Assembly: GCA_965198115.1 (NCBI GenBank)
Contig: OZ240241.1
Location: forward strand, 4,448,001 to 4,512,000
Origin: Candidatus Latescibacterota bacterium
Lineage (GTDB): Bacteria; Latescibacterota; UBA2968
Length of the DNA: 64,000 nucleotides
Direction of reading: 5' to 3'
The notes under the pieces are model-generated. The model made no database searches, was not told the origin of the DNA, and worked only from the letters and a program-made list of their open reading frames with translations. Positions 19,296 to 46,061 of this stretch are shown piece after piece; positions within the stretch are counted from its first letter, which is position 1, and every line of letters starts with the position of its first letter. Made by a program: the position numbers and the translations under genes.

Positions 19296-19298
19296 TTA

Positions 19299-23746: not shown

Positions 23747-26099
23747 CTACGATGGCTCCTGCTGGATTCGGTCGAGGGTCTGTATGACCTGGTCCATGTC
23801 GTATCCCCCGCTGATCTCGCGCAGATGGGCCGCGAGCCTGGCGGTCGATCCGTCGATGGTCGCCAGTTCTTCGATGTGTTTTCGTAGATCGGTCACGCTG
23901 TAGCCTTCGGCCGCCTCGCGCAGCGCACGGTGGAGGTCGGCGGGGACCGAGACCGATGCGAAGTCGATTGCGAGGCCTGCGCCCTCGGGTTCGTCGTATT
24001 CGAACGTGACTCCGAGGGTCTCGGCCAGAGTGGCATAGACCTGGCCCGTCTTGAGGGGTTTGTCGATCAGGGCCTCGAATCCGGCTTCACGGTAGGTCTC
24101 CGTTTCGTGCAGGAGCACCGAAGCCGTGACGGCAATCGTTTTGGGTCGATCGTCGCCGTGTTCGTCCGTCAGCCTGCGCAGGGTCTCCATCCCATCCATC
24201 ACGGGCATCCGAATGTCGAGGAACAGGACGTCCGGGTGCCAGGACCTGACGATGTCGAGGGTTTCCTGACCCGACTCGACCGTTTTTACGTCCACGCCGA
24301 CGGTCGTGAGAACCTGCGCGAGGATGTCGCGGTTCGTGGCGTCGTCGTCGGTGACGACCGCCCTGATGTCCTGTCCCTGCGACAGGGCCCGCGCTCTCGA
24401 CCAGTCGTGTTCGGGCTTCACCGGCGTTCGGCCAGGCGGGAGCGCGAGGGTGAGGGTAAAGGCCGTCCCCTCACCGAGTTGGGATTGAAGGGTGAGGCTT
24501 CCACCCATCAGATCCACCTGTCGTCGCGAAATGGCCAACCCGAGCCCTGTTCCTCCCTGTCCTTCCACGCCTTGACGGAACGGTTCGAAAATCTGCTGCT
24601 GGAGTTCGCGCGAAATGCCCGGACCGGTGTCGATGATTTCGAATAGATGTCGATCGCCTTCGTGAGAAACGTTGAAAGTGACCGAACCGCTACTCGTGAA
24701 CTTGGCGGCGTTGCCGAGCAAATTGATCAGGATCTGCCGGAGCTTGTTCTCATCGCCACGGACGGGAGTCTGCGGCAGTTCTTCGTAAAGTTGCCACGCG
24801 AGACCCTTTTGCTCGCATCTCAGCTTGAACATAGCGTCCAGACCCGACAGCAGCCCCTTGAGGTCGAAATCGGTCGTTCTGAGCTCCTCGCGGCCCGCCT
24901 CGATTTTTGAGATGTCGAGCACGTTGTTGATGAGCGCGAGCAGGTGCTCCCCACTCTCTTGAATCGTGTCGATGGCCTTTCGGTGCTCGTCTTCGAGGCT
25001 CGGATCTCGTTCGAGGATCTGTGCATAGCCGAGGATGGCGTTCATGGGTGTTCTGATTTCGTGACTCATGTTCGCCAGAAATAGACTCTTTGCACGATTG
25101 GCCGCTTCGGCCGCATCGCGGGCGGCGAGCGACTCGTCTTCCTTGGACCGGAGGACCCGATTGCTGCGAAGAATCCGGCCCGCCTGCCATCCGGTGAGGA
25201 GGAGCGCAGCGAGGGAGAGCAGCACGAGCCAGGGTTGTTGCCACACAGGTGGAATGACGACGAAGGCCAGGCTGGCCTTCGTCTGATCGCTCTGAAAGTC
25301 GAGATCTCTCGCACGGACTTCGAACGTGTGGGGCCCCGCTGGCAAGGCGAGCAGGTCCTTGCTCGTGTCCGATCCGTAGGTGCTCCACGGTTCATCGTCG
25401 AGCCGCCAGGAAAACAGCAGGGCGTCGGCTTCGGTCGAGCTCCAGCGGTCGACACCCGACCAGCTGATCGTTGCGTTGCCCGGCTGGGCGATTTCGGTGA
25501 ACTGGGATTGGATGCGTGTTTCGGGGGGGGCCTGATCGGGGACGTATCTCAGGCACCGAAATGCATAGGTGGACGGGGGGGGGGGGGGCTGCGATCCGTG
25601 TTCGGCCCGTGTATACCAGTCCGAAAGGGTGATGGTGAACCAGAGTGCACCGGTCCGGTCCTGTTTGACCGCGGGAGCCCCGCCCTGTAACCAGGATCCG
25701 GGTACGACGTCGGGGGTCCACGACCGTCCGTCGTAGTGGCACACCCCTTCGTCGGAGACGACCCAAATGCTGCCGTCGTCGGCTTCGAGGACACTGCGGA
25801 GACGCCCTTCAGTCAGCCCGTCGCGCTCGTCGTATCGGGTCCACGATTGAAGGTCGAAATGGAAAAGCCCAAAGCTTCTGCTGACGGCCCAGAGGCCCCC
25901 CGAGGGTGGCGTGTAGACGACGTCGAACGGCGTGTTCGCGTAGAGCGCTATTTCGGAGTCGTGAGACCAACTCGTGCCATCGAACTTAACAGGCCTTCGA
26001 CGCCCCCCACCCAGAGTGCACCGTCTGAGGTGTGGCCGACTCCGTAGAAGAAGGTAGACGGGACCGAGCGGTGGCGATGCCATGTCGCCCCATCGAAAC
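23747..26099 (-). pseudogene. Hybrid sensor kinase (beta-propeller/Y_Y_Y sensor, HisKA, HATPase, REC), 5'-truncated by ISAzo13; frameshift ~25987
   Basis: FDGxxW propeller repeats, GPHTFEVRARD, FLANMSHEIRTPMNAILG, QILINLLGNAAKFT, REC motif FLDIRMPVMDG. Confidence 0.85.
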
Positions 26100-26102
26100 T
26101 AA

Positions 26103-27397
26103 GGGTTTGCCACGAAATAAGTGCTGCACTTTTCAAGGTAATGATCTTACGCTCGGAGTGTGGACGTCGAAACTCTCCGAACGAAGTATGAAGCCTTGGC
26201 TCCGGTGCTGACGGAACGCACGCGTCGTCTGTGGGCCGCCACGGAAGCCGAAGCGTTGGGTCACGGTGGGATCGCGATTGTGGCTCTGGCGACAGGAATG
26301 TCCAGAGAGCGGATCTTTCGTGGCATTCAGGAGTTGAGGTCGGACGAACCTTTGGACCCGGCTCGCATCCGGCGTCCAGGCGGCGGTCGTAAGCGGAAGG
26401 CCGACACGGACCCGACGCTGTGGCAGGACCTGAATGATCTGGTCGAGCCAACGACTGCGGGGTCGCCTGACGACAATCCTCTGAGATGGACATCGAAGAG
26501 CACTCGCAAACTGGCCGCCGAGTTGCAAGCGATGGGGCATTCGGTGAGCCCCAGGATCGTTGCCAATCTCCTGCACGAACACGATTACACGCTGCAGGCG
26601 AATCGGAAGACAAGGGAGGGATCTGCACACCCGGATCGGGACGCTCAGTTCGTTTACCTCGATGATCGGATTAGCCAGCAGCAGCAGCAGGGCCTTCCCG
26701 TTATCTCGGTGGACACCAAGAAGAAAGAGTTGATCGGCGACTTCAAGAATCCTGGCCGAGAATGGCGACCCAAGGGAGACCCGGAGCGTGTGAAGGTACA
26801 CGATTTCATAGTGCCTGCTCAGGGCAAGGCGATCCCTTATGGAGTGTATGATCTGAGCCGTGATGAAGGCTGGGTAAGTGTCGGTATCGATCACGACACG
26901 GCCAGCTTCGCCGTGAATGCGATCCGAAGTTGGTGGAAGAACATGGGACGGCCCGCCTACGGCACTTCGACGCATCTGCTAATCACGGCGGACGCAGGCG
27001 GCAGCAACGGCGCCAAGACGCGGCTGTGGAAGTGGGAGCTGCAGCGCTTTGCGAATCGCACTGGCCTGACGATCACCGTATGCCACTACCCTCCTGGCAC
27101 TAGTAAGTGGAACAAGATCGAACATCGCCTGTTCTCCTTCATCGCTATGAACTGGGCGAGGCAAGCCCCTGGTCAGCCTGGCTGCAACCGTGAATCTCAT
27201 TGCCGGAACGACCACTCAAGCCGGTCTCCGAGTACGCTCCGAGATCGACAAGCGACCCTACCCTAACGGGGTCAAGGTGACCGATGAACAGATGACCCAA
27301 ATCGATCTCACTCCGCACGATTTCCACGGCGACTGGAACTACACGATCCGGCCAATGGCTCAACATTGAGATCGACCGTTTATTTATTCGCGAACCC
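26103..27397 (+). mobile_element. ISAzo13-family IS, copy 2; transposase 26160-~27368 frameshifted by an extra G at ~27155
   Basis: Reverse complement of copy 1 plus one G (TGGGCGAG vs TGGCGAG); flanked by TAA on both sides. Confidence 0.92.
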
Positions 27398-27456
27398 TAA
27401 GCTGGGGTAAGCCCAAACGGAAATCGCCGTGATTGGATGGCCGTTTCCGAACCCAA

Positions 27457-27479
27457 CATTGCACCCGCTTGGTGCAATG
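27457..27479. promoter_or_regulatory. Inverted repeat CATTGCACC-N5-GGTGCAATG upstream of the TonB receptor (NtrC-box-like)
   Basis: Perfect 9-bp arms ending 20 bp before the ATG at 27500. Confidence 0.4.
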
Positions 27480-29314
27480 CCACTCAAGGAGTTCGACGCA
27501 TGAATTATCTTCGGTTTCTCAGAGTCGGTGCTGTCGCGCTTACGGTGATGGCGCTCGTCTTTGCACTGCCGCTCCAGGCCGACGCACAGTCGACGACCGG
27601 TAAGGTTTCCGGCCGCGTGACCGATGCCGCCACGGGCGAGCCGCTGCCGGGTGCCAACGTCGTCCTCGAGGGGACAACACGTGGCGCCACGACAAACGTG
27701 AATGGTGAGTATTTCATCATCCTCGTGACGCCTGGCCGCTACTCGGTTGCGGCCTCCATCGTCGGTTACCAGACGATTCACCAAACGAGCGTGGCCGTTC
27801 AGTTGGATCTGACGGCCATCGTGAATTTCGAGTTGACCGAGACCGCCGAACAGCTCGAAGATCTGATCGTGACGGCCGAGCGGCCGCCGGTTCAGATGGA
27901 CATCTCCTTCAGCCAGGCCTCCATGACGGCTGAACAGATCCAGGCTGCGCCCCTCGGTTCACGTCTTCGCCAGGCCTTCGAGACCCAGGTCGGTGTCGAC
28001 AACGACGACTGGGGCCTGACCATACGCGGATCCAACGAGGAAGAGCTTCTCTACAACCTCGACGGAATCGGCCAGCGCGACGGACGCAACAGCCGTCCTT
28101 TCTCGTCCTTCAGCGCGTCACCGGCGTTTCCGAAATGCAGGTGCTCACGGGCGGCTTCAACGCCGAGTACGACAACGTGCGCTCCGGCGTAGTCAACATC
28201 GTGACCAAGGAACCGCGCGCCCTCACGCTCAGCAGCGATCTGAAATGGAGCCCCGCGGCCGAGAAGTATCAGGGTGCCAAAATCTACAGCGCCGATAACT
28301 ACTGGGACATCGGCCGCTTCCAGTCGTTTGGCCCAACCGGCGACCTCGATAGGGACGGCGTGGTGGACTTCGCCGGGTGGGACGCCGTCTGGCAGGGCCT
28401 CACCGGTCCCGACAATCAGCCCATCGTTTCGGCTGCCCAGGCGAAGAGTATCTGGGACTGGCAGCATCGGTCGGTCGACGGTGGCGACATCAAACAATTG
28501 AACCGGAACGGAAGCGAACGGGCCGACGACCGTACGATCGACTACTCGGTCGGTGCACCGATCCTGCGAGATAGACTTTCCTTCCTCTTCTCGCATCGTG
28601 AGGAGCTCACCGCCTACACGTGGGGCATCGCCGTTCCAAGCTACAGGGACCGGTCGGTACAGGGCCGGCTGATTTCCAACCCGACACCCAGCACGAAACT
28701 CACCCTCGGCTGGGTACACAGCTGGGCGGAGGGTGGGAAATGGGGCAACTTCCAGGGGACTTATGCTCGAGGCCCGCGCTACGAAGGACAACAGTTCCGA
28801 AGCGCAAACACCTTCTCGCCGGGTTCGGGCGGTAACCTTCTGAGAATCACCCGAAATCACGGCACATTCAGCTGGACCCATACGCTCTCTCCCAAGACCT
28901 TCTACAACATCAGCGGGCGCTTGGGTTTCACCGATTTCCAGCACGACTACGGGGTCGGAGGTCCACAGAAAAGCGGTGTGCCCGCGGCTGCCATCAACCC
29001 CGATGGGACCATCGACGTCTTCAACGGGCAGATCGAGAGGACCAGCGACGGTCGAATCCTCCAGACGAATATCGACCGGAACCGGACGGGCACCAGCTCC
29101 GTGGCGGGTGCCGTCATCCTCGACGAGGGCCCGGTCGGTTTCGTGTATCGCCCGGCCCAGAGCGACATCCAGAGCCTCTACCGGCTGCGAGGGGGCTCGG
29201 GCAACAACGCCCGCGCCGGCGACTGGGGCACGGCGTGGGAGACCGACTGGTCGGTCGACATGACGAGCCAGATCACGCCGAACCACCAGGTCAAGGTCGG
29301 CGTCCAGGTCCACA

Positions 29315-29951
29315 GTCATGACCTCCGGCAAAGCCGGAGGCTTGAAAACTTGTGAACCGCTCAAAGCGGTTGGAAACCAAGCGCCACCTAAAGGTGGCGA
29401 TTACCTGAAAATGTTGAGCTGGTCGAGACGCCGGTCCTCCCGCTCCTGGTTCTGGATATACTCCCGAACCGTCTGTTCATCCTTGCCAACGGTGGAGACC
29501 CAGTAGCCTCTTGCCCAGAAATGCTGCCCGGTGAAGTTCGACCTGCGTCCCAGATAGTTCCGAGCAATGTGAATCGCACTCTTTCCTTTGATGAACCCTA
29601 CCGTCTGAGCTACTGAGTGCTTCGGCGGGATCGAAATCAGCGTGTGCACATGGTCGGATCGCAGGTGACCCTCTTCCACACGGCATTCCTTCTGTGCGGC
29701 CAGATCCCGAATCACCTCGCCCAGATAGCGACGAATTTCACCATACAACACTTTTCTACGATACTTCCGAACCCAAACAACGTCATACTTGCACTCCCAT
29801 ACCGTGTGACGTAGACTCCTTACGTTGTTCATTAGAGAGCCTTCCTTCCGTGTGCTTTGAGCGGTCTACGGCAAGGGAGGCTCTTACATATTTCTGGAAC
29901 TGTCAAACTCTGGGAGTCTCCCCGGCAGAGCCGGGGGCTTACCAAGGTTTA
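29315..29951 (-). mobile_element. IS200/IS605-family element, copy 2 (637 bp)
   Basis: Reverse complement of 6949-7585 with at least 2 substitutions. Confidence 0.92.
29401..29832 (-). CDS. tnpA: IS200-type Y1 HUH transposase
   Basis: Protein identical to copy 1. Confidence 0.95.
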   Translation of the reverse strand: MNNVRSLRHTVWECKYDVVWVRKYRRKVLYGEIRRYLGEVIRDLAAQKECRVEEGHLRSDHVHTLISIPPKHSVAQTVGFIKGKSAIHIARNYLGRRSNFTGQHFWARGYWVSTVGKDEQTVREYIQNQEREDRRLDQLNIFR

Positions 29952-31619
29952 GTTACAACATCCGCGAAATCCGCGGGTTTCTTTCCACCAACGAAGACCC
30001 GGCCAATCAGCCATTCGGCTGGGAACCCGAAATCCGGTTCGACACGAACGGCGACGGACAATTCTCGGCCGATGAGATCGGCCGCGGATTCGACTGGAAC
30101 AGCCTGCCCGACGCAGCACGTTTGGCCTACGAATCGGCCGCCGACCTTCGCCGTGCGGGCGCCACGGGCGATGAGATCAACGCCGCCATCATCAAGCGGC
30201 AGACGCAGCAGGCGCGCGAACTCCTCAACATCACCGACACGGCCGACTTCCACAACGTGTTCATCCGTTGGCCGACCTACGGTGGTGTCTACTTTCAAGA
30301 TCGCATGGAATACCGCCAGATCATCGTGAACGCGGGTTTGCGCCTCGACTGGCACCAGCCCGACCGCTACTTCGACCTTGGACGGCAGAGCCCGACAGAC
30401 CCGTTCGAGCGGGCCAACCTCCTGCGGGCTGGGATCGATCCCGACACCATCGGCCAGCACGGGCCGTGGCAGGTGCGAAACGCAGTCCTGCTCTACGCCA
30501 GCACCGACCGTGCGCAGCCCCCGACCAAGTGGGCGCTCAGCCCGCGGCTGGGCGTGTCACATCCGATCACCGTCGACAGCAAGCTGTTCTTCAACTACGG
30601 CCGTATGTCCGCGGTCCCGAGCGGCGACGAGCTCTACAACACGCAGAGCGGCATCGGCGAGGGACTAGAGCAGTTCGGCAACCCGTGGCTGAACCACATC
30701 CAGACCATCCAGTACGAGGTCGGTTACGAGCGGAACTTCCTGGATAACTACCTGACCACCGGAACACTCTATTTCCGCGATGTCGAGGGAGATATCAGCA
30801 ACTTCGACTTCCGCGGTATCACCGGCGGCGGCCCGAACCTGCGGCAGAACGGCAGGTCGAAGGACACCCGCGGGTTCGAGTTGAGCGTGAGGAGGGCTCG
30901 GGGCAAGTTCCTGACGGGCTACGTCTCCTACGACTTCCGCGTCGATCGGGACCGGCTTGTCGGCTACGACGACATATCGGACCAGCGGTTCTCCTCCAGG
31001 CCCATCCTCACCGACGTCGAGGACAACCCGGAAACGGCCAACCCGCCGTTCAAGGCGCGGCCCATCATCAAGGTCGGTATCAACGTGCGGACGCCCCTCG
31101 ACTACGGCGGGTCGAGCAGACTCTGGAAGGGCGGCTGGTCAGCCAACCTCTTCTTCCGGAACGAGGGCGGAAACTGGCTCAACTACAACCCCGCAGGTGA
31201 CCAGGCACTCCGCAACGTGCTCAACGCACAGTGGATCGACGAGCGCAGGGTCGACCTCCGGATCAGCAAGATCTTCGATCTTCCCGCGTCCCCCATGCTC
31301 TACGTGGAGGTCCAGAATCTCCTGGACTCCGACATCCCCTACTCCGACCGGGCCGGGGAGCGGGCCGGGGGTTCACGCGCCTCAGATGCGCAGGATCGCG
31401 TTTTCGAGCTGGTCGGCGGACGGAGAGATGACGACAATCTGGAACGCTACATGGAGGCGCTCGGATGGACCGTCGCCGCCGACGGCAGCCTGAACGAAGG
31501 CGGCAAGATAGGCGAGAAAGTGGATGTCGCTTTCATGCCCCAGCGTTCATACATGTTCTACACCTTCGCACGCGACATTCACTTCGGCCTTCGGTTGAAC
31601 TTCTAAGGACGGCTGTTTT

Positions 31620-31649
31620 CTGGCGGGCGCCCGGCCGGGCGCCCGCCAG
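31620..31649. other. Perfect 30-bp GC-rich palindrome (intercistronic hairpin)
   Basis: CTGGCGGGCGCCCGGCCGGGCGCCCGCCAG equals its own reverse complement. Confidence 0.8.
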
Positions 31650-31678
31650 GCCAACTTCTGAACGGGATGGAGGCACCA

Positions 31679-33964
31679 ATGCTTATTCGAATCGCGCTTG
31701 CCGTTCTCGCGCTCCTCGTTTCGACGAGCGGCGCGTGGGCGCAGACCGACTTGAACGTCGGCAAGAACTGGGGTGAGTGGTGGCCCGGCGGCTACAACGA
31801 AGACCGTACGACACCCGATATCGAATTCTCGGTCACCACCCGAGAATATGTTCTCGGCTACGCCCTTGCTTTCGAGAACTACAACACGCCCGACTTCACC
31901 GCGGATCGGCAGATTGTTGGATCGGAGGGCGGCACGATCCCTAGGTTCGTGATGGACAGGGTGGATGACCTTGGACAATACTCGTTCACATTCTTCCGCA
32001 CGGTGGATACCCGAGGGAGTCCGGCAGTTTGGAGACAGACCCCGCCCACCCTCACTCAGGATGGAGCGGTCATTCTTCGCGAAGCTTACAACTTCGACTC
32101 GTCGCGTAACGACCAGATCGTCTCGGGCCTGGGCTCCGATCTCTACCGGGAGAACCAGGAGACCACCTCGGCCGGCATCCACCGCCGGGAACAGACCTGG
32201 ACGTGGGAGCACACGGACTATGACGACATAAGGTTCGTTATTCACACCTACACATTCCCTACCACACCCTACCAGCCCGACCCCCGCGTGGGCGAGCGGG
32301 GTGCAGGCCCGGCCCCGGAGATCGCCACCAGAAACGCCGACGGCCACAAGCAATTCTTCATCTCCCACCACTGGTTCCAGTCTTCCGACAACCGTTCACC
32401 GTCGGGCGGCTCGTTCATCACGCCCAACCCCGGCGAGGGCTCCCGTACCTGGGAAGCGTTCGGTGTCGACCTGGGGGCCCTGGACGAAGTCCGCTACTAC
32501 GAAGACGACCTCACAGGTCCGATAGGTACCGCGGGTACGGAAGATCGAGCCGTCCTTCTGTGGTCTCACGACGGTGACGCTCAGGATTCCCCCGGCTTCC
32601 GGTCCGACCAGGACGACCGAGGCGATCCGGCGCCGGGCCCGGGGTCTAGGCTCGATGCGGCTGCCCAGACACTCATCCAGCCTGGCGAGTTCCTCGAGTC
32701 GATGGCCAAAGGCTGGCTCTTCCTCCACGTCGACAAGACACCGGTCACCGATCCTGGAAGCCTCGCCAGTCTCGAAGGCAACAACTGGCTCACTAGCGCC
32801 GACGACGCCGAGAGCACCCAGCCACGTTCGGCGAGATGGATCGACGACGTCTCCTGGACGAGTACCGAGAGCACCGACATCGATACGGTTTACGATTTCT
32901 TCACCGAGGCCAACACGACGCGCGCCGACCGAATCGTGCTCACGGATGTTGACGATCCGACGTGGACCGGCGCAATACAGGACTTCGTCGAGATGAGAAT
33001 GACCTGGGGCCCGTGGGACCAGATCCGCCCCGGCGAAAGCATTCGCTTCATCACGGCCTGGCTCGTCGCGGGGCCGAACTTCGACGACAACATCAGTGTC
33101 GGCTCGCAGTGGTTGAACGGCCAAATCTCCTTCTCGGAGAAGGAAGCCTTCCTCAATTCTGCCATCGACTCGCTCGATGGCGCGGTCGCTTCGACTCGGA
33201 CCGCGTGGGCAAACAGAAATACCGTTTCCGACGTAGTCAGCACGCTCACGCCTCTCTCCGCCATTCCGATCGGCATTCAGCCTGTCGGCCCGCTAGCACC
33301 GGATTGGCCCGATAACGTCACCTACGATTCGGGCCCCGGACAGAACGAGATCAGCTGGGACGCGGTCAGTGGTGCCGACGCCTACCGGATCTACCGGATG
33401 CTCGGGTTCCACACCCGGATCCCGACCGACGACTTCATCTCGCGAAACGGCAGACACTACATCGGGGAGACGACTGGGACGAGCTTCACCGACACCGACG
33501 TCGTCCGTGGCACGCGCTACTACTACGCGGTCACGTCCGTCGAGAACGTGGGCGGCGACGAGCGCGAGAGTGTCTTCATGGCCACGCGCAGCGAGGCATT
33601 GGGCGTCAGCCCGTTCGCGGCCCCGATCACTTCGAGCAGCGAGCTCGATAAGATCCGCGTCGTACCCAACCCCTACCAGATCCGGGGCGGCGAGTTGTCT
33701 CAGGGCGGGTTCAACTTCGACGGCCAGCCCGACAAGCTGTTGTTCGTCAACCTTCCCTCACGGGCCATCGTCAGGATCTTTTCAATCACAGGCGACATCA
33801 TCAACGAGTTGCGCCATACGGTGGGATCGGGCGACCTGTCCTGGGACCTGATGGTCAACGACAACAACCAGTTCATTACGCCCGGGATTTACATCGCCCA
33901 CATCACGAGCGAAGATCCGTCCGTACCCGGTACCCACATCGAGAGATTCGTGGTCGTCCGTTAA
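31679..33964 (+). CDS. Large secreted protein with FN3-like domain and T9SS/FlgD-Ig-like C-terminal domain
   Basis: Signal peptide (…SGAWA|Q); ISWDAVSGADAYRIYR...YYYAVTSV; C-terminus IRVVPNPY...FVNLP...VRIFSITGDII...WDL...PGIYI...RFVVVR. Confidence 0.8.
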   Translation: MLIRIALAVLALLVSTSGAWAQTDLNVGKNWGEWWPGGYNEDRTTPDIEFSVTTREYVLGYALAFENYNTPDFTADRQIVGSEGGTIPRFVMDRVDDLGQYSFTFFRTVDTRGSPAVWRQTPPTLTQDGAVILREAYNFDSSRNDQIVSGLGSDLYRENQETTSAGIHRREQTWTWEHTDYDDIRFVIHTYTFPTTPYQPDPRVGERGAGPAPEIATRNADGHKQFFISHHWFQSSDNRSPSGGSFITPNPGEGSRTWEAFGVDLGALDEVRYYEDDLTGPIGTAGTEDRAVLLWSHDGDAQDSPGFRSDQDDRGDPAPGPGSRLDAAAQTLIQPGEFLESMAKGWLFLHVDKTPVTDPGSLASLEGNNWLTSADDAESTQPRSARWIDDVSWTSTESTDIDTVYDFFTEANTTRADRIVLTDVDDPTWTGAIQDFVEMRMTWGPWDQIRPGESIRFITAWLVAGPNFDDNISVGSQWLNGQISFSEKEAFLNSAIDSLDGAVASTRTAWANRNTVSDVVSTLTPLSAIPIGIQPVGPLAPDWPDNVTYDSGPGQNEISWDAVSGADAYRIYRMLGFHTRIPTDDFISRNGRHYIGETTGTSFTDTDVVRGTRYYYAVTSVENVGGDERESVFMATRSEALGVSPFAAPITSSSELDKIRVVPNPYQIRGGELSQGGFNFDGQPDKLLFVNLPSRAIVRIFSITGDIINELRHTVGSGDLSWDLMVNDNNQFITPGIYIAHITSEDPSVPGTHIERFVVVR

Positions 33965-33979
33965 CGCAGGAGGGGAATA

Positions 33980-35101
33980 GTGAAACGCATACTACAAGGA
34001 CTCGGGCTGGTCGCGATCTGCCTGAGCTTGGTGACGGGCGATGTGCTCGCCCAAAAAGAAATTTTCAACTTCCCGGGACGCCTGCGTGAACTGTCCGAAT
34101 TCCTCCCGGGTGCCGAAGAAGCGGCCCCGACGCAAATCAAGTCGGGTCAGTCCGGATTCACGTTCCTGAAGCTTCCGACCGACGCGCGTACGGCCGCCAT
34201 GGGCGATGCCGGAAACGGTCTGATCGGGAGTGCGGCAGGACTGTTCTACAACCCGGCGACGCTGGCCTTCCTGGACAGCCGGGAGGCTTTCTTCACGCAG
34301 GTTCAGTGGATCGCCGACATAAAGATGTCGGTCGGCGGGGTCGCCATAAACCTGCCTGCGCACGGTACTGTCGCCGTGGGTTTCCAGACGCTCGATGCAG
34401 GAACCTTCCGGGGGACTGCGATCGACGGCGATCCATCGAACCTGGCAGGATTCAACGAGACGGGAGATTTTACGACGTCGAACTACGCCGTGACCGTGGG
34501 CTACGGGTTCAAGATCACCGATCGGTTCTCCTTCGGCGCCAGCCTGAAGTACGCCAGTCAGGACCTGACCGCCGGCACCATAGGGGACAATATCCTCATC
34601 GGTGGACAGGTGTCGGCAGCGGACAATTCGAAATCGGTCGTCGCATTCGACGTATCGACCTACTTCAACACCGGGTTCCGCAATACGGTGCTGGCCGCCA
34701 GCATCCGTAACTTCAGCTCGGAGTTGACCTACCAGCGGGACCGGTTCGAGCTGCCACGCAACATCCAGCTCGGGCTGCTGTTCGACCTGATCTCGTTATC
34801 CGGTAACACGCCCGCGCCTCACCACCTCGACCTGGCAACCGATCTGAACAACCCCGTCGATTTCGACGAGCGGGTCAGCTTGGGCCTGGAATATCAGTTC
34901 CGCCAGCCAGGCGGCCAAATCGGGTTTTCCGCACGCGGTGGCTGGAAGTTCAACCACGACACCGAGGACTACTCGGCGGGTGCTGGCATCAACTGGATGA
35001 ACGAAGAGGGAAGAGGCTTCCGGGTAGATTACGCTTTCCGCCACTTCAACGGGAACTTCTTCGATAACGTCAACATTTTCAGCGCTGGGATCATGTTTTA
35101 A
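33980..35101 (+). CDS. PorV/PorQ-family outer-membrane beta-barrel
   Basis: FTFLKLPTDARTAAMGDA, LFYNPATL, FSFGASLKY, RVDYAF, terminal Phe. Confidence 0.85.
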   Translation: MKRILQGLGLVAICLSLVTGDVLAQKEIFNFPGRLRELSEFLPGAEEAAPTQIKSGQSGFTFLKLPTDARTAAMGDAGNGLIGSAAGLFYNPATLAFLDSREAFFTQVQWIADIKMSVGGVAINLPAHGTVAVGFQTLDAGTFRGTAIDGDPSNLAGFNETGDFTTSNYAVTVGYGFKITDRFSFGASLKYASQDLTAGTIGDNILIGGQVSAADNSKSVVAFDVSTYFNTGFRNTVLAASIRNFSSELTYQRDRFELPRNIQLGLLFDLISLSGNTPAPHHLDLATDLNNPVDFDERVSLGLEYQFRQPGGQIGFSARGGWKFNHDTEDYSAGAGINWMNEEGRGFRVDYAFRHFNGNFFDNVNIFSAGIMF

Positions 35102-35123
35102 TCCAGCCTGATCGCAAGCTCGG

Positions 35124-35163
35124 CAAAGGCCGCGGATCTTTGGATCTGCGGCCTTTGTCTTTT
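35124..35163 (+). terminator. Rho-independent terminator after the porV-like gene
   Basis: CAAAGGCCGCGGATC-TTTG-GATCTGCGGCCTTTG followed by TCTTTT. Confidence 0.75.
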
Positions 35164-35286
35164 GATCCCGTGGCGAGGAGATCCACCTGGCAATCGCTCT
35201 TCCGTGAACAGGAATGTATCGAAACCGCACACAGCCCATCACCGTCGACCGTCCTTTGTCCTCAGTCTTCTGAATCAGTTATCTTG

Positions 35287-38013
35287 ATGCCTATGCTGCG
35301 GTTCCTGAAGACCACCCTTTGCTTCACGTTCTTAGTCACTGCCTCCACAGACGCCACGCAGGTCGTCCTCGACGATGGCTCCGTCCTAAAGGGCCGCATA
35401 CTCGACTCCACACCCGACAGCCTGATGCTCGAAACCAACGTGTTCGGTCGCATTTCTGTTCCGCATCAAAGGATCATCTTCACAAAGTCGGCTGACGGCA
35501 GGCACCTCCCTCCACGAGCCGGGGAAACCGAACCGCCTCCCATTTTGCAGGACAGCTATGGCGCCGGAGAAGACAGCATCGCGGTCGCTATGATTCGCGA
35601 GGCCATCGGCAACGCGGCAACCGAGGTTTTCACGACCCTCGATGCCGATCAAAAAGCACGCTACCTCGACCGTCTTTGGAGCCGGCGCAGCAGGCTCTTC
35701 CACAAATACTACTATGGCTACCACCTGGGTCGTCGCCGCTTCTCGGTGTCCGAAGCTTACTTCGAACGCGGAAACCTTTTCCAACGTCGCTACCTCACCG
35801 GTTTTCCGTCGCCGCACCCCGACAACATCAAAGAAGCCATCGCCTACATTCAGCGCGCTCTGTCGTTCGACCCCGAAGATCCGGTAGCACTCTGTGCACT
35901 GGGATATCTGAATCTTGAGCGTGATCATATAAAAGAGGCGCGCAAGCTCTTCCTGAAGGCCATCACGAAGGACCGTCGTCTCGTCGAAGCCCGCAACGGG
36001 CGCGCGCTGGCCATTCTCAAGATACACCACCAGAAGGCCAAGGCGCTCAGACTGTTCCGCGAGACGTGCGCGATGGACCGTGAATACATCGGGGCCAGCT
36101 ATGCCATGGGCATGTGTTACCTGGCCACCATGGGAAAGGATCGTGTCGGCCTCGACGAATATTTCGGAAAGGTTGTTCGACTCGATCCCAATCACCACGA
36201 TGGCTGGTTCAAGCTGGGTGTCTTCTACGAGTCCCTGCGCTACATCGATCGCGCAGCAGAATCTTACTCGCGCCAGCTGGCCGTCAACCCGAACCACGAA
36301 AGGGCGTCCGAGCGTCTGGCTCGTGTGAGCATACAGCTCGAGAGCGACAGTAAGGAGCATCTCTCACACAATAAGCTCATCGAGCTCGCGCGGCGCAGGC
36401 CGAAGCACTACCTGACCCTGCTCGCGGAATCCTACATCGAACGGGGTGAGTATCTCGGGGCGGAATCGGCCTACCAGAAATATCTCGAGATCCTTCCGTT
36501 CTCCGAGCGCCAGCATTTCGAGGATCTTTCCCTGATCGCCAAACGCGAAGCATTCGAGGAAATCGAGTCGGCCTACGGCAGGGATGAGCGGAACCGCGCG
36601 ATCCGTCGATTCTGGGCCCTACAGGATCCCACGCCGACCACACCCGTCAACGAGCGTCGCGTCGAACATTACCGGCGCGTCGCGCACGCGCGCAGATACT
36701 ATGCCGACGGCGTCAATCCAACGAGAGACATCGGTTGGGATCGGCGCGGCGACCTGTATGTACGGTTCGGCCACCCCGATCATACCTCCTCCACCGACTT
36801 CCTCGTGTTCGAGACCGACCCCCGGGTGGTCAAAGTCAAGAATCGGCTGAACGCCCTGGCCCACAACGCCCTGCACGAAGTCGTTCCGCCCCAAAACCTC
36901 GCGTCGGGCGCGGCGCCCTTTGCGGAGATCAACATCCGGGGAATCCCGACGTTCCCACTCCCCCGCCGAACAACGATGTTCACCGACGGTGTCGAATCAG
37001 GCTACAAGTGGGAAAGCTGGATCTACGGACACCTCGCGGGGGGGTTCGAAGTCACCTTCATCGACGAATTCGGCAGGGGATTCTACGAATTCGCCGTGCC
37101 ACCCCCGGGAACGCGCTACCCCATTTTTTGGCAACAGATGTCGCCCGAAGCCATCGTAGGCCGTATCGTCAGCGACCGGCCTTCTATCTACGAACACGAT
37201 TACGGGGGCGATCCACTCACCCTGTTCGTGACCACCGCCGGATTCAGAGGGGTCGGAGAAGAGACGAACCAGGAGATTTATCTGGGTCTTCCGCTAAAGG
37301 AGATCGCCCACGGCCGGAAAATTCGATTGCAGCTCGAGTTCGCACTCTACGACCGGAACTGGCGCATCGTTCGCACCACTCAGAATGAAATCGAGCAACA
37401 CCTTTCCTCGACGCCCGCCGGAGATGACCTATTCATCGATCAGGTCGTCGAACAAATTCATTCGGGATCCTATTTCCTCGCCCTTCAGGTCCGTGACCCG
37501 GAGACGGGGAACATCCAAATCTACAAGACCCCCGTTGAGATTCCCGATCTCAGCAGGAGTGAACTGCAGATCAGTGACATCGAGCTGGCAGGTCGCATCC
37601 GCCCGGCGGACGGAAGGACCGGCCCCTTCACCAAAGGGGACCTGGAGGTGCTGCCCCTCCCCACAAAGCGTCTGCTCGACGGCCAGGCCCATCTCTATTT
37701 CGAGATTTACAACCTCGCCCGCGACGAGTTCGGTAGAACACGGTATCTTGTGGATTACGAGACCACTTCTGAGACAGGGGTGACCGTGGTTGCCGCGCTC
37801 GGGCGGCTGCTCGGGGGAGGTCCTACGGAGGTGGCGTCATCGGTCTCCTACGAGCACACCGGGTCCTCCCAAAACGAGGCCATGCACGTCAGCCTCGCCC
37901 TTCCCGACACCGACGCGTCTCTCGTCGACCTGACCGTTCGCGTGACCGACCTGGTCGCGCAAGGCGAACCCCGCGCCGAGCGAGCGCTCCACATCGGTGG
38001 CTCTCCCCCGTGA
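35287..38013 (+). CDS. Secreted TPR + GWxTD-domain protein (paralog 1)
   Basis: TPR helices; FWALQDPTPTTPVNERRVEHYRRVAHA...GWDRRGDLYVRFGHPD, WESWIY; C-terminal ISDIELA...LYFEIYNL. Confidence 0.85.
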   Translation: MPMLRFLKTTLCFTFLVTASTDATQVVLDDGSVLKGRILDSTPDSLMLETNVFGRISVPHQRIIFTKSADGRHLPPRAGETEPPPILQDSYGAGEDSIAVAMIREAIGNAATEVFTTLDADQKARYLDRLWSRRSRLFHKYYYGYHLGRRRFSVSEAYFERGNLFQRRYLTGFPSPHPDNIKEAIAYIQRALSFDPEDPVALCALGYLNLERDHIKEARKLFLKAITKDRRLVEARNGRALAILKIHHQKAKALRLFRETCAMDREYIGASYAMGMCYLATMGKDRVGLDEYFGKVVRLDPNHHDGWFKLGVFYESLRYIDRAAESYSRQLAVNPNHERASERLARVSIQLESDSKEHLSHNKLIELARRRPKHYLTLLAESYIERGEYLGAESAYQKYLEILPFSERQHFEDLSLIAKREAFEEIESAYGRDERNRAIRRFWALQDPTPTTPVNERRVEHYRRVAHARRYYADGVNPTRDIGWDRRGDLYVRFGHPDHTSSTDFLVFETDPRVVKVKNRLNALAHNALHEVVPPQNLASGAAPFAEINIRGIPTFPLPRRTTMFTDGVESGYKWESWIYGHLAGGFEVTFIDEFGRGFYEFAVPPPGTRYPIFWQQMSPEAIVGRIVSDRPSIYEHDYGGDPLTLFVTTAGFRGVGEETNQEIYLGLPLKEIAHGRKIRLQLEFALYDRNWRIVRTTQNEIEQHLSSTPAGDDLFIDQVVEQIHSGSYFLALQVRDPETGNIQIYKTPVEIPDLSRSELQISDIELAGRIRPADGRTGPFTKGDLEVLPLPTKRLLDGQAHLYFEIYNLARDEFGRTRYLVDYETTSETGVTVVAALGRLLGGGPTEVASSVSYEHTGSSQNEAMHVSLALPDTDASLVDLTVRVTDLVAQGEPRAERALHIGGSPP

Positions 38014-40562
38014 CCGCGTTGTTCGCCCTTGCGTGCACGGCATGCCTTACTGTGGCGCACGCCGATGAGGTCGAGCAGTTAAGTCTTCTACCCGAATTCG
38101 ACGACGCTCACCACGCCATCAGCAAACGCCTGATCGAGCGTGAGGCCGGCCCCGACAGCAGCAGTCATTACTCGGGCCTCCACGACGACGCGAAGGCGGC
38201 CTTCCTCGACCGGTTCTGGGCACGCCAGAATCCCCTTCTGCATCGATTCTACTACGGCTACCACCTCGGAAAGAGACGGTTTACGGTCTCCCACGCCTAC
38301 TTCGAACGGGGCGATCTGATCCCCAAGATGTATCGCTGCGATTGGCCCCCGCCCGATTCGGCCCTCGTCGCCGAGGCTGTAGAGCTGACTGGGCTGATCG
38401 TCGAGGCGCTCCCCGAAGATGCGGTCGCGCTCAATGCTCGGGGCTACACACTGCTCGAAGCCGGGCGAGCCCTGGAAGCCGAGAAGCTGTTCCTCCGGGC
38501 CTGTGAGATCCAGCCTGACTTCCCGGAGGCCCGAAACGGTTGGGGGCTGTCTTACCTTCCCCAAAAAAAACGGCTGATGGAGGGCCTCTACCACTTCCGT
38601 GATGCCATCGCCAGTGGCGGACAGTATGCCGGTGCGTGGTACAACCTGGCCATGTGTCACCTCGCGATGGGCAGCATCGACCTCGATCATCGCTTTAGCC
38701 AGGTCACCCAGCGATTCCCGAATCACCCCGATGCCTTCCACAAACTCGGCGTCGTGTTCGAAGAGCTTTATAATTACAAACGTGCGGCGGGCGCCTACTC
38801 GAACCAACTAATGGTCAATCCGGACCATCGCCACGCGCGAGCCCGGCTCGCTCGCGTGAATCTCGAGATGTCCTGGACGCGACGCCGCCACTACGACATT
38901 CCAGACGTGGAGGCCCTCGTCGAGCAGGACCCCGTTCGGTATCTGCCCCTGCTCGCCGCCACCTACCTGGCCAAAGAGGACTACGAAGCGACGGAGGAGA
39001 CCTACAACCGCTACTTCAAACTCATCCCGGGACATTTGAAGAGGCATTTTGACGATGTCACGCTGCTCGCCACACGGAAGGAATTCACCGAAATCGAGGG
39101 TGCAGAAGACGTCCACCGGAAGCGTCTCCTGCGACAGTTCTGGCTGCGTCTCGACCCGACACCCGTCACAAGAATCAACGAGCGACGACTCGAGCACTTT
39201 CGCCGCGTGCACTATGCCCTCCGCAATTTCGGACTTGGGAAAAAGCCGTGGGACGTGCGGGGCGACGTCTACATCCGGCTCGGGCACCCCAATCACCGTT
39301 CGTGGTCGGAAAACCTCGTGTTCGAGACGCATCCCAAAGCGGTTCGTGTCAAGAGCCGCCTGAACGAACTCGTCCATCGTGCCAAGGGCGAGATCATGCC
39401 TTCTGATTTCAACACGAGGCCAGGTCTGTTTCTCGCACGGGAGTTGGGTGAGATTCGGGGGATTCCCATCTTTCCCGTTCCCCATCGTGGAAGCCCCTTC
39501 GCCGGCGTCGCCACGCTCAACGCCCGGTGGGAACTCTGGATCTACGGAGACGTTCTCGAAGGAGTCGAGATCACCTTCGTCGACGAGTACGGCGACGGAC
39601 TCTACGACTTTGCGCAGCCGCCACAATCCTCGTCCTACCACAGCCTGTGGCTGTCTCTCGCGCCCGAAACGATCTACCAGAGGGCGGTTTCGGAATCTCC
39701 CTCCCACTACACATTCGACTATAAGGGTGCCCCGCTCGATCTTCACGTCGACCACGCCGTCTTCCGCGATAACGACCGTTCCGCCGTGGAGATCTACATC
39801 GGCGTGCCGTGGAACCAGATCGGGCTGCAGCCACGGGGCAACGTTCTGTTCGGACAGCTCGACCGCAAGGTCGCCGTTTACGACGAGGATGTCCGGCTGG
39901 TCTACGCTGATACCGTCCGCATCGCCCAGGGGATTTCGGACGAATCGCAGGCCGGACCCGGAACACTCATGGTCGATCAGATTCGTGTTCCGATCGTGCC
40001 GGGGACTTACTTCCTGGGAGTCGACGTCCGGGATCCGGGAACGCAGAAAACTCAGGCACTCCTCAAAAAAATTCAGGTCCAGGATTTCCAGGCATCGGAG
40101 TTCGCACTAAGCGAGGTCGAGATCGCCGGTCAGATTGTCGATGCCGACCGCGAGATGGGTCACCAGTTTCTCAAGAACGAGCTGACGGTTCTCCCGCTGC
40201 CGTCGCGGACGTTCGCGCGGGATGCGCAGATCTACCTTTACTACGAAGTCTACAATCTGCTCAGGAACCGCGATGGACAGAGCCGCTATCGTGTCGACTA
40301 CCACATCCGAGGCGGCAAGCCAAAGGGGGCCCGACGTATCCTGGGTGGTCTCGCAAGGCTGATCGGAACATCCGCAGAGAGCGATGAGCTCCGCGTCTCC
40401 TACGAACACGAAGGGTTCAGCGCTTCCGAACCCATGTACATCGCGCTCGACGTGGATCCAGTCGACCGAGAGGAAATCGAAGTGGCCGTGCGTGTCACGG
40501 ACCTCATGCGAAACGACGAGCCGACGGCCAGCCGGGTTGTCGGCGTCAAACGAGGGAGATGA
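38010..40562 (+). CDS. Secreted TPR + GWxTD-domain protein (paralog 2)
   Basis: FWLRLDPTPVTRINERRLEHFRRVHYA...PWDVRGDVYIRLGHP, WELWIY, LYYEVYNL; GTGA overlap with paralog 1. Confidence 0.85.
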   Translation: MTALFALACTACLTVAHADEVEQLSLLPEFDDAHHAISKRLIEREAGPDSSSHYSGLHDDAKAAFLDRFWARQNPLLHRFYYGYHLGKRRFTVSHAYFERGDLIPKMYRCDWPPPDSALVAEAVELTGLIVEALPEDAVALNARGYTLLEAGRALEAEKLFLRACEIQPDFPEARNGWGLSYLPQKKRLMEGLYHFRDAIASGGQYAGAWYNLAMCHLAMGSIDLDHRFSQVTQRFPNHPDAFHKLGVVFEELYNYKRAAGAYSNQLMVNPDHRHARARLARVNLEMSWTRRRHYDIPDVEALVEQDPVRYLPLLAATYLAKEDYEATEETYNRYFKLIPGHLKRHFDDVTLLATRKEFTEIEGAEDVHRKRLLRQFWLRLDPTPVTRINERRLEHFRRVHYALRNFGLGKKPWDVRGDVYIRLGHPNHRSWSENLVFETHPKAVRVKSRLNELVHRAKGEIMPSDFNTRPGLFLARELGEIRGIPIFPVPHRGSPFAGVATLNARWELWIYGDVLEGVEITFVDEYGDGLYDFAQPPQSSSYHSLWLSLAPETIYQRAVSESPSHYTFDYKGAPLDLHVDHAVFRDNDRSAVEIYIGVPWNQIGLQPRGNVLFGQLDRKVAVYDEDVRLVYADTVRIAQGISDESQAGPGTLMVDQIRVPIVPGTYFLGVDVRDPGTQKTQALLKKIQVQDFQASEFALSEVEIAGQIVDADREMGHQFLKNELTVLPLPSRTFARDAQIYLYYEVYNLLRNRDGQSRYRVDYHIRGGKPKGARRILGGLARLIGTSAESDELRVSYEHEGFSASEPMYIALDVDPVDREEIEVAVRVTDLMRNDEPTASRVVGVKRGR

Positions 40563-40563
40563 A

Positions 40564-41859
40564 GTGAATAGACTGATTTACGCAGTGCTTCTGACCATCA
40601 CGATGTGGGGAATGCGACCGCCAGAGGGAATCGCCGCAACCGGAGATATCTACGTCGTCGCCGGAACCGGAAAATCGGGCTTCAGTGGTGATGGCGGGTC
40701 GGCCATGAACGCTGAATTGAGGGTTCCGTCAACGACAGTTGCCGACGGAAAAGGCCAGCTCTATGTCGTCGATACATCCAACAACCGCATTCGGCTGATC
40801 TCGCCCGAGGGTATCATCCGAAGCATCGTCGGAAACGGACAGCGCATCTATTCTGAGGACGGTCTCGACGCCCTCAAGACGGCGCTCCTGACGCCCTCTT
40901 CCGTGTTCGTCGATCGAACAGGCATCATCTACTTCTCCGAATGGAGCGGCCACCGCGTTCGGCGTGTCGACCCCGACGGCCGGATCTGGACCGTCGCTGG
41001 AAACGAGCAATCCGGTTACGTGGGTGAGGAGTTGAACGCGATCGAGACGTCCCTCGGGACGCCGTCCCGCATCTTCATCGACGGCCAGGGGCGTCTCTAC
41101 ATCTCCGAATGGAGCGCAAATCGGGTTCGACGTGTCGGTCGCGATGGAACGATCAACACGGTGGCCGGCAACGGCAAAGCCGACTTCGGCGGCGATGGTG
41201 GACCCGCGACGGACGCCTCGCTGAGATCTCCCAACGGCATCTTTGTCACCGACGACGGCATCCTCTACATCGCGGATCTCGGAAACAATCGCATCAGACG
41301 CGTCACTCCCGACGGCATCATCACATCCGTAGCAGGCGACGGCATTCCCGAATGGGCGGGCGACGGAGGCCCCGCCTCGATCGCGAGGCTGAACAGACCC
41401 TCAGGAGTCTTCGTCGATGCCAGGGGCGACCTCTACATCGCCGACTCGAGGAACAAGCGTATCCGTCGGATCGACGCCGACGGCATCATCTCTACCGTCG
41501 CTGGCGGAGGACAGACGGCCCCGCACAGTTTCGGCCCGGCCACGCAGTCGCTCCTCCGAAGTCCGTCCGACGTCTTCGTCGACGCCAAAGGCGACCTCTA
41601 CATCACCGACGGCTCGATCAGCATGATTCGCCGAGTCGAAGGGATCGCCACCCCGACCACGTTGGCAGCGCTCCGCCCGGACGCCCGGGTCTTCTACGAG
41701 CACCAACCCATCGGTCTCCTCGACGTGCTTCGAGTCTTCGCTCACTTCGGCCGCCAATCGGGATCGAACGAATTCGACCCACGGCTCGACGTCGACCCCG
41801 ATGGCCGAATATCCCTTGCCGACGTACCCGGCGTCCTCGCAGCCGCGATCGGGTTCTAA
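40564..41859 (+). CDS. Secreted NHL-repeat (teneurin-like propeller) protein with degenerate dockerin/EF-hand tail
   Basis: Repeated VAGxG..GDGGPA..A.L..P..vfVD..G.LYIAD..N.RIRR; tail FDPRLDVDPDGRISLADV. Confidence 0.85.
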   Translation: MNRLIYAVLLTITMWGMRPPEGIAATGDIYVVAGTGKSGFSGDGGSAMNAELRVPSTTVADGKGQLYVVDTSNNRIRLISPEGIIRSIVGNGQRIYSEDGLDALKTALLTPSSVFVDRTGIIYFSEWSGHRVRRVDPDGRIWTVAGNEQSGYVGEELNAIETSLGTPSRIFIDGQGRLYISEWSANRVRRVGRDGTINTVAGNGKADFGGDGGPATDASLRSPNGIFVTDDGILYIADLGNNRIRRVTPDGIITSVAGDGIPEWAGDGGPASIARLNRPSGVFVDARGDLYIADSRNKRIRRIDADGIISTVAGGGQTAPHSFGPATQSLLRSPSDVFVDAKGDLYITDGSISMIRRVEGIATPTTLAALRPDARVFYEHQPIGLLDVLRVFAHFGRQSGSNEFDPRLDVDPDGRISLADVPGVLAAAIGF

Positions 41860-41929
41860 CATCTTGGACAGAACCGGACGCTTTCGATGCCGATGACTCC
41901 TCGACGCAGGGATTCCGGTTAGGCCCAAA

Positions 41930-43162
41930 ATGCTCCACGCGCTCCTCATCCTTCTTGTATCCATCGGCTCTGCAAGCGCTCAGCCGCTCGAACTGATCGC
42001 CGGTGTCGGCCAATCGGGATTCAGCGGCGACGGGGGCCCGGCGACGGCCGCCCAGTTGAACGTGCCCGTCTCGGTCTTCGTCGACGATCGGTCCAACGTC
42101 TACGTGGCAGACATCGCAAACCGCCGTGTGCGGCGAATCGACGCATCCGGAACGATCGAAACCGTCGCCGGAACGGGGGAAGATGCGACGTCCGGTGACA
42201 ACGGCGCGGCCATCGACGCCGGCGTATTCGGACCGACCTCCGTCTTTCTGGATGGTGCGGGTGTGCTCTACGTCGCCGAATGGAACGGACACACCCTCCG
42301 AAGAGTCGACGCGTCGGGCCGTATCACCGCGTTCGCCGGTACGGGCGTCTACGGATACGGAGGAGAGGGGCAGCAGGCGGATGCAGCGAGACTTTGGAAC
42401 CCTTCTGCCGTTTTCCGATCGGGCGGGGGTGAAATCTACCTGACCGAGTGGAGCAATCACCGCATTCGACGGATCGAACAGGACGGCTCGATCGTGACGC
42501 TTGCCGGCACGGGGATCGCCGGTTTCACCGGCGATGGAGGACCGGCTGTTCTGGCTCGTGTCAACAGCCCGAACGGACTGTTCGTCGCTGAGGATGGCTC
42601 GATCTACTTCAGCGACCTCGGCAACCACCGCGTGCGACGCATCGACGCCCAGGGCACGATCACCACCGTCGCCGGCACGGGCATCCCCGACTTCACGGGA
42701 GACGGGGGACCGGCCGATCGAGGCACGCTGAGCAGCCCCGCGGGACTTTTCGTCGACGCGGCAGGAACGCTCTACATCGCCGACAGCCGGAACGCCAGAA
42801 TCCGCATCGTACGACCCGACGGAACGATCCACACGATCGTCGGCCCCGAACTGGGAGACCAGCTCCTGGCGCCACAGGACGTCTTCGTCGATTCCCGGGG
42901 CGATCTCTACATCGCCGACGGATCGGCCCACCGTGTCTACCGGGTTGCGGGTCTGGCCGCACCCACACGGTTGCCCGGGGCCGCCCCCAAGCCCATCGAC
43001 TTCAACGCCAACGAAATCGTCGACTTCGGCGACTTCCTGCTCTTCGTGGCACAGTTCGACACGGCCGACCCCGACACCCGGTTCGACCTCATCGAAGACG
43101 GCCTCATCGACTTTGCCGACTTCGTCCGCTTCGCCGAATCTTACACCACGCAATCACCGTAG
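41930..43162 (+). CDS. Secreted NHL-repeat protein with dockerin-like double EF-hand tail
   Basis: NHL repeats; tail DFNANEIVDFGDFLLF...FDLIEDGLIDFADFVRFA. Confidence 0.87.
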   Translation: MLHALLILLVSIGSASAQPLELIAGVGQSGFSGDGGPATAAQLNVPVSVFVDDRSNVYVADIANRRVRRIDASGTIETVAGTGEDATSGDNGAAIDAGVFGPTSVFLDGAGVLYVAEWNGHTLRRVDASGRITAFAGTGVYGYGGEGQQADAARLWNPSAVFRSGGGEIYLTEWSNHRIRRIEQDGSIVTLAGTGIAGFTGDGGPAVLARVNSPNGLFVAEDGSIYFSDLGNHRVRRIDAQGTITTVAGTGIPDFTGDGGPADRGTLSSPAGLFVDAAGTLYIADSRNARIRIVRPDGTIHTIVGPELGDQLLAPQDVFVDSRGDLYIADGSAHRVYRVAGLAAPTRLPGAAPKPIDFNANEIVDFGDFLLFVAQFDTADPDTRFDLIEDGLIDFADFVRFAESYTTQSP

Positions 43163-45981: not shown

Positions 45982-46061
45982 CGTGGGCTCCTTTCTTACG
46001 GGTACACGCTCTCACACGCGTACCCACAACGTAAGTTTGGAGCCCTTTAAGTTTCAACTAG

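Follow-up and report, generated by a model that had tools for sequence, protein, structure and literature searches.

The 64,000-nucleotide stretch of Candidatus Latescibacterota DNA described here (contig OZ240241.1, positions 4,448,001 to 4,512,000; hereafter the window) carries three co-oriented genes on the + strand, which encode in order a TonB-dependent transporter (TBDT; broken in this copy), an exported protein of 761 amino acids (aa), here called the cargo, ending in a C-terminal domain (CTD) of the type IX secretion kind, and an outer-membrane barrel of the PorV/PorQ family. The triad is a real and widespread module, apparently undescribed. It probably provides a type IX-secreted binding lid, kept beside its TBDT by a private barrel in the style of PorZ and PorQ. 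The cargo would be exported via the SprA translocon through its own CTD subtype, and passed to the cognate barrel to stay uncleaved on the surface, as PorZ does on PorQ. Its beta-supersandwich would be presented over the TBDT as a substrate-binding lid, and the substrate, plausibly of glycan or peptide type, would differ between paralogues. Covering a TonB importer with a lid is in Bacteroides the job of SusD.

Conservation and co-inheritance of the triad

An alignment of the cargo is matched in all 41 genomes of the first search. Among the 23 best loci within the family, 19 have a receptor gene 5' and a barrel gene 3' of the cargo gene (one of them being a paralogue in the window's genome), and the other four reach a contig edge. 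The surroundings of PorV-family genes were taken from three complete genomes, G018, G022 and G029. In G018, a related Latescibacterota, 21 of the 28 barrel open reading frames (ORFs) examined sit in the order TBDT, cargo, barrel. The same is true for 18 of 23 in G029, where two more look like damaged triads and the strict rule failed on a split cargo gene (L070) and a short receptor ORF (L061), and for all 11 barrel loci fetched from G022, 3 of its 14 over-cut-off matches being outside the sample. The median intergenic gaps of triads are 66 and 19 bases. Triads account for 21 of the 36 plug-domain matches of G018, and for 3 of 22 in the window's genome (G000).

Within the window's phylum, a profile of the triad CTD finds matches in 114 of 121 genomes (up to 28 in a single genome), and it does so in 143 of 251 Bacteroidota-phylum genomes as well. 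At the top loci of 27 Bacteroidota-phylum genomes, picked by score, a choice favouring triads, the three genes, as read from gene maps, adjoin one another in every case (27 of 27). The order is receptor-cargo-barrel in 24, barrel-receptor-cargo in two and receptor-barrel-cargo in one. A strict scripted count, lowered by reordered, split and edge cases, found both neighbours at 27 of 45 CTD matches. The gene order, which the original prediction made from the window sequence had named among the features to look for elsewhere, is therefore conserved across Latescibacterota and Bacteroidota-phylum genomes. More distant homologues of the cargo carry source names including Handelsmanbacteria, Rhodothermales and KSB1 (cargo only, gene order not compared), and a search of the ESM Atlas returned unnamed clusters only, commonest in Fidelibacterota and Gemmatimonadota.

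Cargo paralogues residing in one genome have a median identity of 22-34%. In every genome taken by itself, the distance matrices of receptor, cargo and barrel are correlated (Spearman 0.41-0.85, permutation p <=0.011), and trees built from 52 triads have 27-32 of 49 splits in common, against 0.2-0.3 with shuffled labels. The flanks vary, and include DUF6785/6784 membrane proteins, TPR/GWxTD proteins, a small outer-membrane protein (OMP) barrel, oxidoreductases, regulators and a heparinase-like gene. Because distances correlate, trees share splits and flanking genes vary, the three genes are duplicated and kept as one unit, within which barrels are seldom swapped. Such co-inheritance is to be expected of a cognate complex, but is no proof of contact.

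Some triads have peculiar companions. DUF6785/DUF6784 membrane proteins, candidates for an inner-membrane transporter of the same pathway, flank L032, L040, L041, L043, L046, L049, L065, L066 and L093. In one triad clade (L037-L049, L063, L068, L069, L071, L074, L083, L085, L088, L089) a fourth gene located 5' of the TBDT encodes an exported protein of ~235 aa; of the ~10 that were scanned, three are matched by the OMP_b-brl family (E 1e-6). At L118 (G123 C1:178000-194000) two near-identical cargo genes lie between one TBDT and one barrel.

The cargo protein

No cysteine, and hence none for a lipid anchor, occurs in the 761 aa of the cargo, which starts with a type I signal peptide seen in the sequence. 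The lipobox pattern is absent from 46 of 50 paralogous cargoes. The SusD family model matches neither the window cargo nor any of the 46 members scanned, and no Pfam or NCBIfam model matches the window cargo at E 0.1. The original prediction, which put a non-lipoprotein cargo in the place of SusD, is supported in this respect.

The folds discussed below are predicted ones. The full-length model has a mean per-residue confidence (pLDDT) of 63, modest in the CTD part. The N-domain folded alone reaches a pLDDT of 76 and a predicted template modelling score (pTM) of 0.84. In the predicted order, a beta-supersandwich is followed by few (three or four) helices, an FN3 domain and the CTD. The N-domain model resembles the N-terminal non-catalytic domains of the glycoside hydrolase (GH) families GH94, GH65, GH15 and GH116 (best Z 13.2, root-mean-square deviation (rmsd) 4.5, 263 residues aligned), and the full-length model has no room for the catalytic (alpha/alpha)6 barrel of GH15/65/94/116. 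Foldseek used with the full-length model retrieved mostly FN3 proteins, FN3 repeats likewise dominated a search of protein representatives with the full-length cargo alignment, and profiles of the N-domain and of the CTD found no match among the sequences of solved structures. Among the matches listed, the fold searches show no SusD/TPR chain, although such a match may lie outside the list.

Weaker matches of the N-domain were obtained with mutarotase-like proteins (Z 8.8-8.9), polysaccharide lyases (Z 9-10.8) and YidC. The first two would fit a cargo which, rather than being a passive lid, is a surface enzyme with a mutarotase/epimerase- or lyase-like supersandwich, trimming or converting the substrate prior to import. 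In line with this, an acidic residue stands at positions 154, 182 and 269 in 88-98% of a set of 65 sequences. Yet the top fold matches are non-catalytic N-terminal domains of glycoside hydrolases and phosphorylases. Moreover, no polar residue is invariant and no His is conserved, the invariant residues of the N-domain being Gly and Pro. No enzyme family is common to the 46 members, among which only CTD-bearing type IX models recur, four other models being found in one member each. A catalytic cargo appears on the whole quite improbable, and a binding lid is preferred.

The tail noticed in the original prediction (VVPNPY...PGIY...RFVVVR) is present, and the fold modelled for it is PorZ-like: residues 651-761 superpose on residues 684-775 of PorZ (5m11) with Z 11.3 and rmsd 2.7 over 87 aligned positions. 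In contrast, a match to TIGR04183, or to any Pfam or NCBIfam model, was not obtained, neither TIGR04183 nor PF18962 being matched over cut-off by the window cargo. Eight of 46 cargo members match TIGR04183/PF18962 weakly (best E 1.7e-4), and three of 46 match CHU_C (PF13585), weakly as well (best E 1e-4). At the profile level, the CTD matches one of the type A CTDs of the window's genome (E 2.3e-5). Predicted structure and weak matches of family members together point to a type IX CTD. None of the three triad cargoes of the window's genome is included in its 19 TIGR04183 matches. In turn, the triad CTD profile has 3, 21, 11 and 20 matches in G000, G018, G022 and G029, numbers equal to their triad counts. 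Judged by these profile matches, the triad CTD is a distinct subtype, mostly confined to triads.

The barrel, and whether it anchors or shuttles

The window barrel scores 167.9 bits on NF033709 (cut-off 90), as expected for the PorV-like protein originally predicted, and its profile matches the solved PorV 6h3i_F at E 1.2e-28. The scores on the PorV and PorQ equivalogs are 65.3 (cut-off 250) and 76.5 bits (cut-off 220), respectively. With the PorP/SprF model PF11751 the barrel reaches 25.6 bits, just above the cut-off of 22.3, and TIGR03519 gave no match. Classed by these scores, it is a paralogue of the PorV/PorQ family, not an orthologue of PorV or PorQ. A housekeeping PorV candidate is encoded in the window's genome by a separate gene (156 bits on the PorV model), and in a quick maximum-likelihood tree falls in another clade, triad barrels branching apart from housekeeping barrels. 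The barrel is, as had been surmised, a PorV paralogue of the triad's own. At L052 (G018 C1:1258074-1278000), four triad-clade barrels stand in alternation with other exported proteins, and neither a TBDT nor a cargo with triad-type CTD is present.

PorV is described as a shuttle to the attachment complex (PMC5562754), and the triad barrel could be a dedicated shuttle and nothing else, taking over the cargo from SprA and handing it on. The CTD would then be cut by a PorU-like protein, and the cargo either anchored to lipopolysaccharide or freed as a soluble scavenger which returns the substrate to the TBDT. A freed scavenger of this sort would be comparable to a hemophore. A PorU-like protein occurs, below cut-off, in five of the five genomes tested (in the window's genome 292 bits, cut-off 420), and gene linkage and co-inheritance fit a shuttle equally well. 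If the housekeeping PorV could shuttle the cargoes, however, one co-diverging barrel per cassette would be needless, and the known one-to-one pairs, PorQ-PorZ and SprF-SprB, are described as anchors. We regard a barrel that only shuttles as unlikely.

Secretion parts in triad-bearing genomes

The window's genome (8.43 Mb, one contig) has 11 NF033709 matches, eight of them above cut-off, and three belong to triads. The search for sprA and porKLMN suggested in the original prediction had a divided outcome. SprA is present (TIGR04189, 645 bits, cut-off 200), along with TonB and the 19 type A CTD matches. GldM was matched in none of 16 triad-bearing genomes, as opposed to 10 of 20 genomes devoid of the triad CTD, though divergent forms could be missed; GldN was matched in none of five genomes, in a search lacking a positive control, GldK and GldL being outside the scope. 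Since neither GldM nor GldN is matched, the secretion system of triad-bearing genomes is not the canonical one. The 16 genomes, including that of the window, may host a type IX system devoid of a known motor, despite the SprA, PorV, PorU-like and many CTD proteins of the latter.

The missing motor could also be taken to mean that the cassette does not serve uptake, and that the TBDT takes part in the export or assembly of an adhesin or envelope cargo, TonB energy possibly replacing the GldLM motor. There is a recorded case of protein secretion requiring a TBDT (Oar/PopC; PMC6434023), and few glycan enzymes are found beside the scanned triads. Against this, the 19 type A CTD proteins of the window's genome have no TBDT of the triad class, and secretion in general therefore does not need one. 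Furthermore, ~20 divergent receptor-cargo pairs per genome, located near LacI/GntR regulators, a heparinase-like gene and putative membrane transporters, are better explained by a diversity of substrates. A role in export looks very improbable.

Relation to SusD and to known systems

The window's genome has no SusD match, and each of 40 relatives has at most one. In the set of 251 Bacteroidota-phylum genomes, 47 have at least seven triad-type CTDs; among the matches listed, 36 of these have no SusD, and none has eight or more. Conversely, 38 of 46 SusD-rich genomes have no triad-type CTD among the matches listed. Counts of SusD and of triad CTDs are inversely related (Spearman -0.66, over the 200 genomes with either among the matches listed).

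As in SusC/SusD systems, the triad TBDT has an N-terminal CarboxypepD_reg-like domain, a dedicated partner of the surface type is encoded directly after it, and many paralogous pairs are found per genome. Unlike SusD, the partner has no cysteine, is predicted to be beta-rich, bears a CTD and is accompanied by its own barrel. The SusC/RagA model TIGR04056 (cut-off 368) is not reached by the 5' piece of the window TBDT (63.5 bits), by the intact orthologue of the window triad, L033 (58.5), or by L115 (78.5). Six alternative families of TBDT lids described in Bacteroides are, like SusD, lipoproteins (10.1101/2023.03.17.533168).

PorZ is held on the surface by PorQ, and PorU by PorV (PMC5562754). 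These pairs, like the triad, combine a CTD protein with a barrel of the PorV/PorQ family, and it is on the CTD of PorZ that the predicted triad CTD superposes. They are single-copy housekeeping parts of the secretion machine, whereas the triad pair occurs in many copies, each linked to a TBDT, and its barrel falls below both equivalog cut-offs. Genes for type B cargoes cluster with their own PorP/SprF, and cognate barrels have been proposed to protect CTDs from cleavage (PMC10202324; PMC9143113). In SprB-SprF as in the triad, the cargo gene is located beside that of its cognate barrel, private barrels go with a private CTD type, and anchoring is proposed. The triad barrel, however, reaches a far higher score with PorV/PorQ (168 bits) than with PorP/SprF (25.6 bits). 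The main text of PMC9143113, which deals with the type B CTD, does not contain the word TonB. A xylan locus of Rhodothermus marinus, Rmar_1070-1072, follows the same pattern and is a candidate member, encoding a TBDT, then a hypothetical protein that bears a Por C-terminal domain, and another exported hypothetical protein; in the text of PMC6987092, no barrel or module is named for it. In short, TBDT lids, dedicated barrel-cargo pairs and a possible type IX system in other phyla belonging to the Fibrobacteres-Chlorobi-Bacteroidetes (FCB) group (PMC11285876) all have precedents. Among titles and abstract openings of the open literature (subscription papers and supplements being outside this scope) no description of their combination in a triad was found, and none is given in the available text of PMC4454575, PMC3534657, PMC5317091, PMC12419801 and 10.1101/095471.

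Several observations weigh against a surface lid retained by its own barrel. The importer of the window itself is a pseudogene. Any duplicated operon would show the co-inheritance described above, and contact among the three proteins is not proven by it. The supersandwich is found also in YidC and in a lysosomal transporter chain, and sugar binding can therefore not be read from the fold. As triad cargoes went into building the CTD profile, the equality between its matches and the triad counts is partly circular. Four non-triad barrels, those of L052, nest within the triad barrel clade in the quick tree. G123, the one Bacteroidota-phylum genome examined in full, has 15 CTD matches, of which nine are in full triads, four have neither neighbour, one has a barrel and no receptor, and one more has a barrel, its upstream side being outside the sample. 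Around the Latescibacterota triads that were scanned, most neighbours are DUF6785/6784 membrane proteins, TPR/GWxTD proteins or oxidoreductases, and evident glycan enzymes are few. The pattern of SusD and triads is not phylogenetically independent, and is made of counts per genome among the matches listed. As many as 51 of 58 genomes with three to six triad CTDs also carry SusD, and the two systems therefore coexist. Finally, as GldM is matched in none of the 16 triad-bearing genomes, the export of the cargo would have to be energised without a recognised motor.

What the triad may stand for is broader, and is put forward as a tentative view, rather doubtful at present. In Latescibacterota and in further FCB lineages poor in SusD, the triad might be the main core of nutrient capture, and in some genomes over half of the TonB importers would belong to it. 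It would use a third type of lid, in which a private CTD-barrel pair replaces the lipid anchor, and a type IX system that includes SprA, PorV and a PorU-like protein and lacks a recognisable GldLM motor, and would amount to an alternative to SusCD on the scale of the superphylum. SusC/SusD pairs are the mark by which polysaccharide-utilisation loci are recognised, and uptake is for this reason hard to see in SusD-poor FCB phyla. If the view is correct, the triad becomes a marker for uptake loci in these phyla (recall the 21 of 36 plug-domain matches of G018), a large unannotated protein family gains a name, and type IX secretion is tied directly to TonB-dependent import. The ~20 cognate CTD-barrel pairs per cell would also be a natural test set for the discrimination of cargoes by PorV-family barrels, and the missing GldM match raises the question of how triad-bearing organisms power secretion.

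The triad locus of the window

The TBDT of the window, as stated in the original prediction, belongs to the family, with matches to CarboxypepD_reg, Plug and barrel models. That the gene is interrupted was overlooked. A tblastn comparison with L033 revealed a frame change at ~28120 and a gap holding an insertion sequence (IS) of the IS200/IS605 type at 29314-29955. The 5' piece (27500..28120, + strand) includes the signal peptide, the CarboxypepD_reg-like domain and the plug start, and is 58% identical to residues 4-204 of L033. The middle piece (28120..29313, +), with the plug end and the first part of the barrel, is 47% identical to residues 204-613. The 3' piece (29956..31606, +; PF00593 70.9 bits) encodes the remaining beta-barrel, with Phe as last residue, and is 50% identical to residues 640-1068. 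The IS200/IS605 element lies on the - strand (Y1_Tnp 129 bits, NF033573 139 bits), its tnpA gene spanning 29401-29832, and is present in ~38 near-full-length copies in the window's genome. Two short-read contigs from a single sample, which may be the source sample, match without gaps over 27400-29341, frameshift included, and no joint skipping the IS200 element was seen in them. A long-read error was considered as the origin of the frameshift and rejected on account of this ungapped match. Since the short-read contigs carry them, both breaks are probably true features of the DNA. An ISAzo13-family element (26100..27401, +; NF033519 485.6 bits) lies directly 5' of the gene, ending ~100 bases before the likely start codon, and may have separated it from its promoter. 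A scan for promoters gave 2 sites, where chance alone would give 2.9. In view of the frameshift, the IS200 insertion and the upstream ISAzo13, this copy of the triad is probably decaying.

The cargo gene (31679..33964, +) encodes the predicted beta-supersandwich at residues ~26-510, FN3 at 539-638 and the CTD at 651-761. The latter (33629..33961, +) has the triad-type pattern V.PNP[YF]...G.Y...F.[IV][IV][RK]. The barrel gene (33980..35101, +) encodes 373 aa and belongs to the triad clade. A G+C-rich hairpin without T-run lies on the + strand between TBDT and cargo (31620..31649; z -2.8, 2 of 200 shuffles being equally good). The three co-oriented genes are closed, as originally noted, by a hairpin resembling an intrinsic terminator (35122..35165, +), made of a stem-loop at 35122-35159 and a T-run (fold z -4.6, none of 200 shuffles being equally good).

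The window's genome has two other triads, both on the - strand. One (L093, C1:517597-524436) is intact and paralogous, with a TBDT of 1098 aa, a cargo of 776 aa and a barrel of 362 aa; it is preceded by a DUF6785/6784 gene, and is a better object of study than the window copy. The other (L092, C1:5599637-5606842), of the long-cargo subtype, shows apparent frameshifts in each of its three genes.

Two genes for TPR and GWxTD proteins lie 3' of the triad (35140-40562), and genes of the TPR/GWxTD type are found also 3' of L033 and of several paralogous triads. The load of insertion sequences is heavy in the window (18214-20535, 26100-27401, 29314-29955, 44734-46934) and in the whole genome. The ISAzo13 copy at 26100-27401, one of at least 40 near-identical ones in the genome, appears to truncate a hybrid histidine kinase gene (23747-26083, -) at its 5' end. 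Farther downstream, at 40384-43162, two exported repeat proteins are encoded, with repeats that we take to be NHL-like and a presumably dockerin/EF-hand-like tail.

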